From contig OX597828.1 in assembly GCA_951406725.2 (NCBI GenBank), positions 31,682,001-31,746,000 of the forward strand: a DNA stretch of 64,000 bases, written 5' to 3'. This document shows positions 9,722 to 9,932 of the stretch, piece by piece. The notes under the pieces are model-generated. The model was not told the DNA's origin. It did no database searches and saw only the letters and a program-made list of their open reading frames with translations. How positions within the stretch are numbered: the first letter of the stretch is position 1; each line of letters opens with the position of its first letter. The DNA is from Octopus vulgaris (taxonomy: Eukaryota). Position numbers and translations under genes: made by a program.

Positions 9722-9759
9722 TCGGCGAGAATTAGATTTCCTTCACAAATACTTATACT

Positions 9760-9932
9760 CCGTGTGTATCATAAGTTGAAGACGGGAAGGATGACTTCCC
9801 TTTGCAAATACTGACAGGACACAGAAAGTGTGTCTATGGCCAGCTGGAGGAGTGTGTCCTCCTGGGGCTAAAAACTACAGTAGCATCCCCCCTTAAGGGT
9901 TAGCCATATAGAAATGGCAAAAATACGTCACA
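9760..9932 (+). repeat. Inverted partial copy (~173 bp) of the array unit
   Basis: ccgtgtgtatcataagttgaagacggg...aaatacgtcaca is the reverse complement of unit sequence, followed by (TA)n to 10040. Confidence 0.95.

Follow-up and report, generated by a model that had tools for sequence, protein, structure and literature searches.

The octopus locus described here raises the question of whether the point at which a tandem array of hammerhead-bearing units turns around has been set by self-cleavage of its RNA in vivo. The window, i.e., the whole stretch of 64,000 nt of Octopus vulgaris DNA that was analysed (contig OX597828.1, positions 31,682,001 to 31,746,000), contains a long arm of tandem retrozyme units of 352/353 nt (6.9 copies with a period of 352, 7339-9759, RNA sense on the minus strand), which is followed by a short inverted arm of 174 nt (9759-9932, plus strand). 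When the phases of the unit are numbered so that +1 is the first base after GUC, i.e., after the predicted cut, the long arm reaches from an outer (3') end at phase +217, termed site B, to an inner (5') end at +264/265, and the short arm from -2/-1 to an outer (3') end at +172/174, termed site A. The preliminary description had let the array halt at ...acttatact (9759) and flip its orientation there, had placed the start of the inverted arm 1-2 nt before the predicted cut, and had seen both outer ends in (TA)n; these coordinates have proved correct. At the head-to-head junction (9759-9761, plus strand), the T at 9759 is common to both arms, 9760 corresponds to C17 and 9761 to +1, no filler being present, and the element is bordered by a left (TA)n target tract at 7287-7338, with a single G interruption adjoining the element, and a right one at 9932-10040, within which a target-site duplication is unreadable. 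The interval from site A to site B forms a 46-nt "tail" at one insertion end only (7339-7384, minus strand). The short arm is identical in sequence to unit 6 and differs in 2 columns from the neighbouring unit 7; it is offset by 88 nt from a mirror image, the inner phases of the two arms lie 88 nt apart, and the rare alleles at +129, +136, and +150 are present in both the array and the inverted arm. To the right of the (TA)n tract, a repeat with a tRNA-like head (10049-10330) appears SINE-like by eye, with no match in ARAGORN or Rfam, and two overlapping frames at 12448-14375 (minus strand) resemble a remnant of a LINE-like reverse transcriptase (weak zf-RVT match).

Judged by sequence, the array would be a non-LTR retrozyme, as it consists of tandem hammerhead units, is non-coding, lacks LTRs, and has a self-paired monomer. 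The putative type I hammerhead of unit 7 (9664-9708, minus strand, predicted cut 9670/9669) combines a stem I of CACACG/CGUGUG, the core CUGACGA and GAAA, a stem II of 4 bp, and a palindromic stem III, with pairing assigned by eye; the other six predicted cuts in the window lie at 9318/9317, 8965/8964, 8613/8612, 8261/8260, 7909/7908, and 7556/7555. At the gathering thresholds of Rfam the window hammerheads give no match, the motif falling below them, and in all seven units a rare allele at phase 339 (9684, minus strand), with A instead of the C of the family, breaks one of the four stem II pairs. The monomer RNA is strongly self-paired (-118 kcal/mol, z = -5.95), an equal stability being reached in 0 of 100 shuffles, and the array in the window holds no low-repeat open reading frame of at least 170 aa. 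The family is dispersed, with 2765 candidate unit matches in the 2.8-Gb genome and 169 matches from the 40 that were scored. The idea that damaged ribozymes yield long arrays has been rejected: among 61 loci with at least two hammerheads, a shared core variant occurs in the window only, and 11 further arms longer than 1000 nt carry none. Looser motifs resembling the hammerhead core at 11510-11550, 19088-19120, and 25113-25169 (all minus strand) are possibly remnants of other Penelope-like elements (PLEs). Retrozymes have been argued to be non-autonomous PLEs (bioRxiv 10.64898/2026.07.22.740005; PMC7229834), and the reading of the locus as a reverse-transcribed insertion of Penelope type into (TA)n, with one arm partial and inverted, is supported. 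We consider it likely that the locus was formed in a single retrotransposition event, in which a Penelope-like protein with reverse transcriptase (RT) and GIY-YIG domains acted in trans on a non-coding hammerhead retrozyme.

Whether the inner end of the short arm is a footprint of cleavage can be judged from the breakpoints of other copies, for which three sets comprising 149 loci besides the window have been assembled. A unit search gave 39 loci, biased to long arms; 74 loci were anchored at the +174 end (site A) and taken from the first 100 of 176 matches, and 36 further ones were anchored at the +217/220 end (site B) and taken from the first 100 of 191 rows. Segment groups shorter than 24 nt were excluded, as were the two duplicates L075 and L136 and, from the breakpoint counts, the window itself, and arm ends were called by phase-tracking alignment; by our estimate, which uses the overlap with the genome-wide searches, the sampled loci represent about one seventh of the family. 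The preliminary description had taken the inner end for a trace of in vivo cleavage and had itself named the distribution of breakpoints in other copies as the check, and when this check was run, the ends were found spread over the whole unit; the reading of the inner end as a cleavage footprint is not supported for the family. No family excess exists at the cut, with 3 of 225 arm 5' ends at -2..+2 in the 149 non-window loci (2.5 expected if uniform), 6 of 225 at -4..+5 (5.7 expected), and 13 of 225 at a distance of at most 10 nt (12.7 expected). An arm end called automatically at +1 in L129 was wrong on inspection.

Genome-wide counts were obtained for intervals of 9 nt, using patterns in which a core of 18 nt has to match exactly and three mismatches have to lie upstream of it, and were corrected by eye for indels, duplicates, and other subfamilies. 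The raw and corrected numbers of ends are 13 and 11 at -51..-43, 6 and 6 at -33..-25, 37 and 32 at -11..-3, and 26 and 23 at -4..+5; for -20..-12 (28 and about 14), +7..+15 (50 and about 36), and +25..+33 (46 and about 30), the cores also catch other subfamilies, and these three are less comparable. The profile of the 23 ends near the cut, from which three indel rows were removed and in which L156 was shifted to -4 by eye, is flat, with four ends at -4, five at -3, two at -2 (one of them the window), one at -1, three at +1, one at +2, four at +3, and three at +5. No genome-wide spike is thus seen at the cut, where -2..+2 holds 7 ends versus 32 at -11..-3. The breakpoints of the family near the ribozyme are not strictly uniform, since the density of ends is about threefold lower at -51..-25 than at -11..+5 (17 vs. 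49), with a step at about -12 that does not lie at the cut. In terms of the hammerhead, stem III (phases -12 to -3) has about three times the density of 5' ends seen over the region of stem II, the core, and the 5' strand of stem I (-51 to -25). Several arms stop precisely at -12, where stem II has its base and the reverse transcriptase may pause.

The cut is read through by 86 of 163 end-anchored arms, with 103 passes versus 3 stops at a distance of at most 2 nt; in the interval up to 5 nt from the cut, the stop rate amounts to 7.6 per 1000 nt versus 4.0 overall (8 events where about 4 are expected), a 1.9-fold difference that is non-significant. It had been argued beforehand that a random breakpoint would rarely fall within 2 nt of the cut, and this argument has turned out to be weak: as every inverted insertion has two inner ends, the probability that one of them lies within 2 nt is 2.3-2.8% per insertion, and in a family with 2765 candidate matches, ends near the cut are therefore expected several times. 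Moreover, the window arm fits cleaved RNA poorly, because it keeps C17, which is absent from cleaved RNA. The position of the inner end next to the cut is probably a coincidence.

The cleavage reading can be recast for a linear multimer RNA with a ribozyme-cut 5' end, on which an A-primed cDNA ran off and acquired C17 as an untemplated base, while a B-primed cDNA stopped about 90 nt before the A primer and was then joined to it by twin priming. In L1 twin priming, two target-primed cDNAs yield a head-to-head 5' inversion joined by microhomology, and the inner end of the long arm (+264), just 3' of site A, is where twin priming on one RNA would place it, as the start of the short arm 1-2 nt from the cut is where a run-off would end. 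The few other loci with features at the cut (the +1 arms of L150/L151, the re-copied filler of L146 and L162, and the 13-nt insertion at the cut in L107) speak for this account as well, and ribozyme cut sites are known to shape genomic 5' junctions in R2 (PMC3774820). Against it stand the missing family-wide excess at the cut, the fact that 9 of the 23 ends near the cut reach -3 or -4, the need to assume an untemplated C17, and, in the window itself, the stem II mismatch of the ribozymes and the junction without filler. For the element studied in PMC11167929, no RNA-seq reads have been found that start or end at the cut. In addition, the inner ends of B arms lie in +175..+270 in only 4 of 47 copies, where 12.8 would be expected if uniform, and a collision geometry of L1 type has accordingly been rejected as a family rule; compared with L1, the priming sites of the retrozyme are both fixed, and its B arms overrun site A, so that the arms overlap. 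Altogether, the run-off of an A-primed cDNA on a cut linear multimer is regarded as an unlikely, though not a negligible, origin of this junction.

Cleaved RNA is probably copied at times, giving a small and rare run-off class. Among the genomic copies, L150:1350-1776 (G000:C2, about 201,423,100-201,423,550) is the strongest candidate for one made from a cleaved linear template; in L150/L151 both arms begin exactly at +1, and the filler consists of repeated copies of about +5..+18. The filler of L146 and L162 resembles re-copied 5'-terminal bases, and the insertion in L107 (482-497) lies between two tandem units, as if copying had jumped across the cut RNA. Where arm A remains inside the first unit, arm B does so too in 16 of 17 copies (p = 0.0004), an association that a cut linear template would also produce. 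Compared with the expectation for a run-off, the window has C17, lacks filler, and carries the stem II mismatch in all seven of its ribozymes, and we doubt that its copy is a true run-off from cleaved RNA.

A much stricter regularity has been found at the outer ends. Among 82 inverted copies, 72 combine site A (+171/174) with site B (+217/220, 43-49 nt apart), a B/B pairing occurs once and an A/A pairing never, and in the other 9 one of the ends is non-standard. As anchoring hides B/B copies in the site-A set and A/A copies in the site-B set but leaves the partner end free, the pairing can be read from the partners, which are of the opposite site in 28 of 28 cases in the A-anchored set and, in the B-anchored set, in 20 of the 21 copies whose ends are both standard; a seeming B/B copy on C9 was resolved into two neighbouring A/B insertions (L206). 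The TA targets are likewise general, with 176 exact matches to site A plus TA and 191 rows for site B plus TA versus 0 in the reversed controls, and TA flanks are seen also in the locus set that was chosen independently of the ends. These copies bear on the suspicion that a chimera, of the assembly or of reads, has created the junction, or that part of the array was inverted later. No public contig from a set of four runs, which is unable to show absence, spans the junction, but the 82 inverted copies elsewhere have the same architecture and the same two outer ends, and the short arm is not a mirror of the neighbouring sequence, differs from unit 7, and ends at site A. Such an artefact or later rearrangement is thus considered extremely improbable.

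The arms of one insertion also share their template. At four common polymorphic sites, opposite arms are concordant in 166 of 169 comparisons, where 0.50-0.73 per site would be expected if they were independent, and adjacent units are concordant in 353 of 360 (134 loci, window included). Rare variants are common to both arms in 38 cases and are not in 146, and because later homogenisation has thus been limited, the agreement of the arms most likely dates from the insertion. With at most one mismatch allowed, the window haplotype recurs nowhere but in two pairs on C31, and a search for a genomic source with the exact haplotype gave none besides the window itself. On C31, G000:C31:6556672-6556958 and 8569271-8569557 represent a variant with 254-nt spacing that carries the rare alleles of the window; a derivative without most of the hammerhead, in which about -26 is joined to +29, occurs at L210 and six similar places. 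Arm lengths are correlated in the end-anchored sets (rho 0.65, n = 47) and uncorrelated in the long-biased set (rho -0.23, n = 24). Simple junctions, 66 in number, show an overlap of 1-9 nt in 42 cases, a blunt join in 6, and filler in 18.

A shared haplotype would also be explained if an antisense template or the first cDNA had folded back or primed itself to give the inverted arm, a route suggested for rotifer Penelope elements from palindromes at inverted junctions (PMC3846280), and one targeted copy, L211, does turn at the palindromic stem III. Fold-back would leave the inner phases close together, but they lie within 30 nt in 16 of 72 copies, with 14.0 expected by permutation, and 88 nt apart in the window; furthermore, either arm can be the longer one, in 19 of 72 copies both are longer than one unit, and each arm has a fixed end of its own. 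Self-priming is hence a very unlikely source of the inverted arm.

For the preferred reading of two target-primed cDNAs on one template haplotype, the following steps may be envisaged. A PLE protein would nick both strands of the (TA)n tract, and the two nicked 3' ends would prime cDNA synthesis, one of them at site A and one at site B. The template would be RNA of one monomer haplotype, either a ligated circle or an uncut multimer, and both cDNAs would pass the ribozyme cut, stop at variable positions, and be joined head to head by short microhomology or filler. As 44 of 48 B arms, being longer than 50 nt, extend past site A, strand displacement on a circle, or the use of two units of one transcript, would be needed. 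The fixation of rare alleles in all units favours a monomer bottleneck somewhere in the cycle, which is consistent with circles as templates; circular RNA templates have been proposed before (PMC4209133). We put forward, tentatively and as one possibility, that a dimeric Neptune-type PLE protein engages two obligately paired sites on one circular retrozyme RNA and produces both arms by rolling-circle reverse transcription. A purified PLE protein, a dimer by prediction, has been shown in vitro to cut both strands and extend them, starting reverse transcription at two internal sites that bound the tail, with no need for ribozyme cleavage (PMC11167929).

A candidate for such a protein is found in the same genome. 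A young RT-GIY-YIG element has ends in (TA)n and a tail of 42-46 nt, and its linker suggests that it is Neptune-like (PMC8557442). Young Neptune-like PLE families with RT, CX4CxxC, and GIY-YIG are seen at L213-L241, L107:916-3760, and L164:340-1281; their tandem units are spaced by about 4.4 kb, they have (TA)n ends, inverted arms, and, at one end, a tail of about 40 nt, and the pLTR of one family contains a degenerate hammerhead-like motif. In three loci and in a diverged remnant in the window, the candidate helper borders on (TA)n at one and the same site, and in one locus it does so 42 nt further on; the remnant at 56609-56723 (minus strand) is a diverged (77.5%) pLTR end of the helper family ending in (TA)n at 56557-56616. 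The helper tail end agrees with retrozyme site B in 14 of 19 bases in register, which was reached in 0 of 2000 shuffles at that place and in 3.1% anywhere, the comparison being post hoc. Otherwise, the retrozyme has no BLAST match to the helper pLTR in any of the 29 helper loci, nor does an alignment of the two score above shuffles. The Neptune-like element is accordingly only a candidate helper, the link to it consisting of 14 of 19 bases that were chosen after looking.

Animal non-LTR retrozymes (PMC7229834, Cervera and de la Pena 2020) have in common with the octopus family tandem non-coding units of 150-450 nt, one type I hammerhead per unit with a short palindromic helix III, a self-paired monomer, and a dispersal over many loci. 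Arms in inverted orientation, fixed outer ends at A and B, and target sites in (TA)n go unmentioned in the consulted parts of PMC7229834 and bioRxiv 10.64898/2026.07.22.740005; the word "inverted" is absent from PMC7229834 and stands once in the preprint, in the title of a reference. In the octopus family, cleavage and circular RNA are predicted features. The family works like a Penelope-like insertion, with an inverted 5'-truncated copy, a one-sided tail, and a microsatellite target like that of Neptune/Naiad, of which the inverted copy and the one-sided tail were known already (PMC8557442; PMC3846280). With endonuclease-bearing PLEs (PMC8557442; PMC3846280; PMC11167929), it shares partial tandems, an inverted 5'-truncated copy at the 5' end, a tail of 30-40 bp that is often one-sided, microsatellite targets, and two RT starts delimiting the tail, whereas the retrozyme is non-coding and has a tail of 43-49 nt. 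The pairing of the A and B starts is near-obligate by count in the retrozyme, while no strand difference has been observed for the PLE in vitro (PMC11167929). R2 with its 5' HDV-like ribozyme (PMC3774820) provides a precedent for a cut marking genomic 5' junctions, but nearly all retrozyme copying crosses the cut, and at most a few per cent of the passes stop there. The consulted part of PMC9977147 has no bearing on junctions, and counts of the pairing rule or of template sharing have not been found in searches of an open-access collection in which most subscription papers are missing. The mechanism of tandem and inverted PLE insertion has been called undefined (PMC8557442) and has been reconstituted only in part (PMC11167929).

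The coincidence that drew attention to this locus is, taken alone, probably ordinary, and the significance lies with the family-wide rules. A young, small, and non-coding family with hundreds of copies makes insertion rules countable, namely two different starts per event, one template haplotype, correlated arm lengths, and read-through of the cut. A candidate helper with many intact open reading frames makes these rules testable in vitro, and they bear on the question of whether retrozyme circles serve as templates. If the circular-template model is true, the array, the inverted arm, and the one-sided tail would stem from one event, the role of the ribozyme would be to form the circle rather than the ends, and rare copies would record the linear cleaved monomer; it would then offer a general mechanism for the unexplained tandem and inverted insertions of Penelope-like elements.
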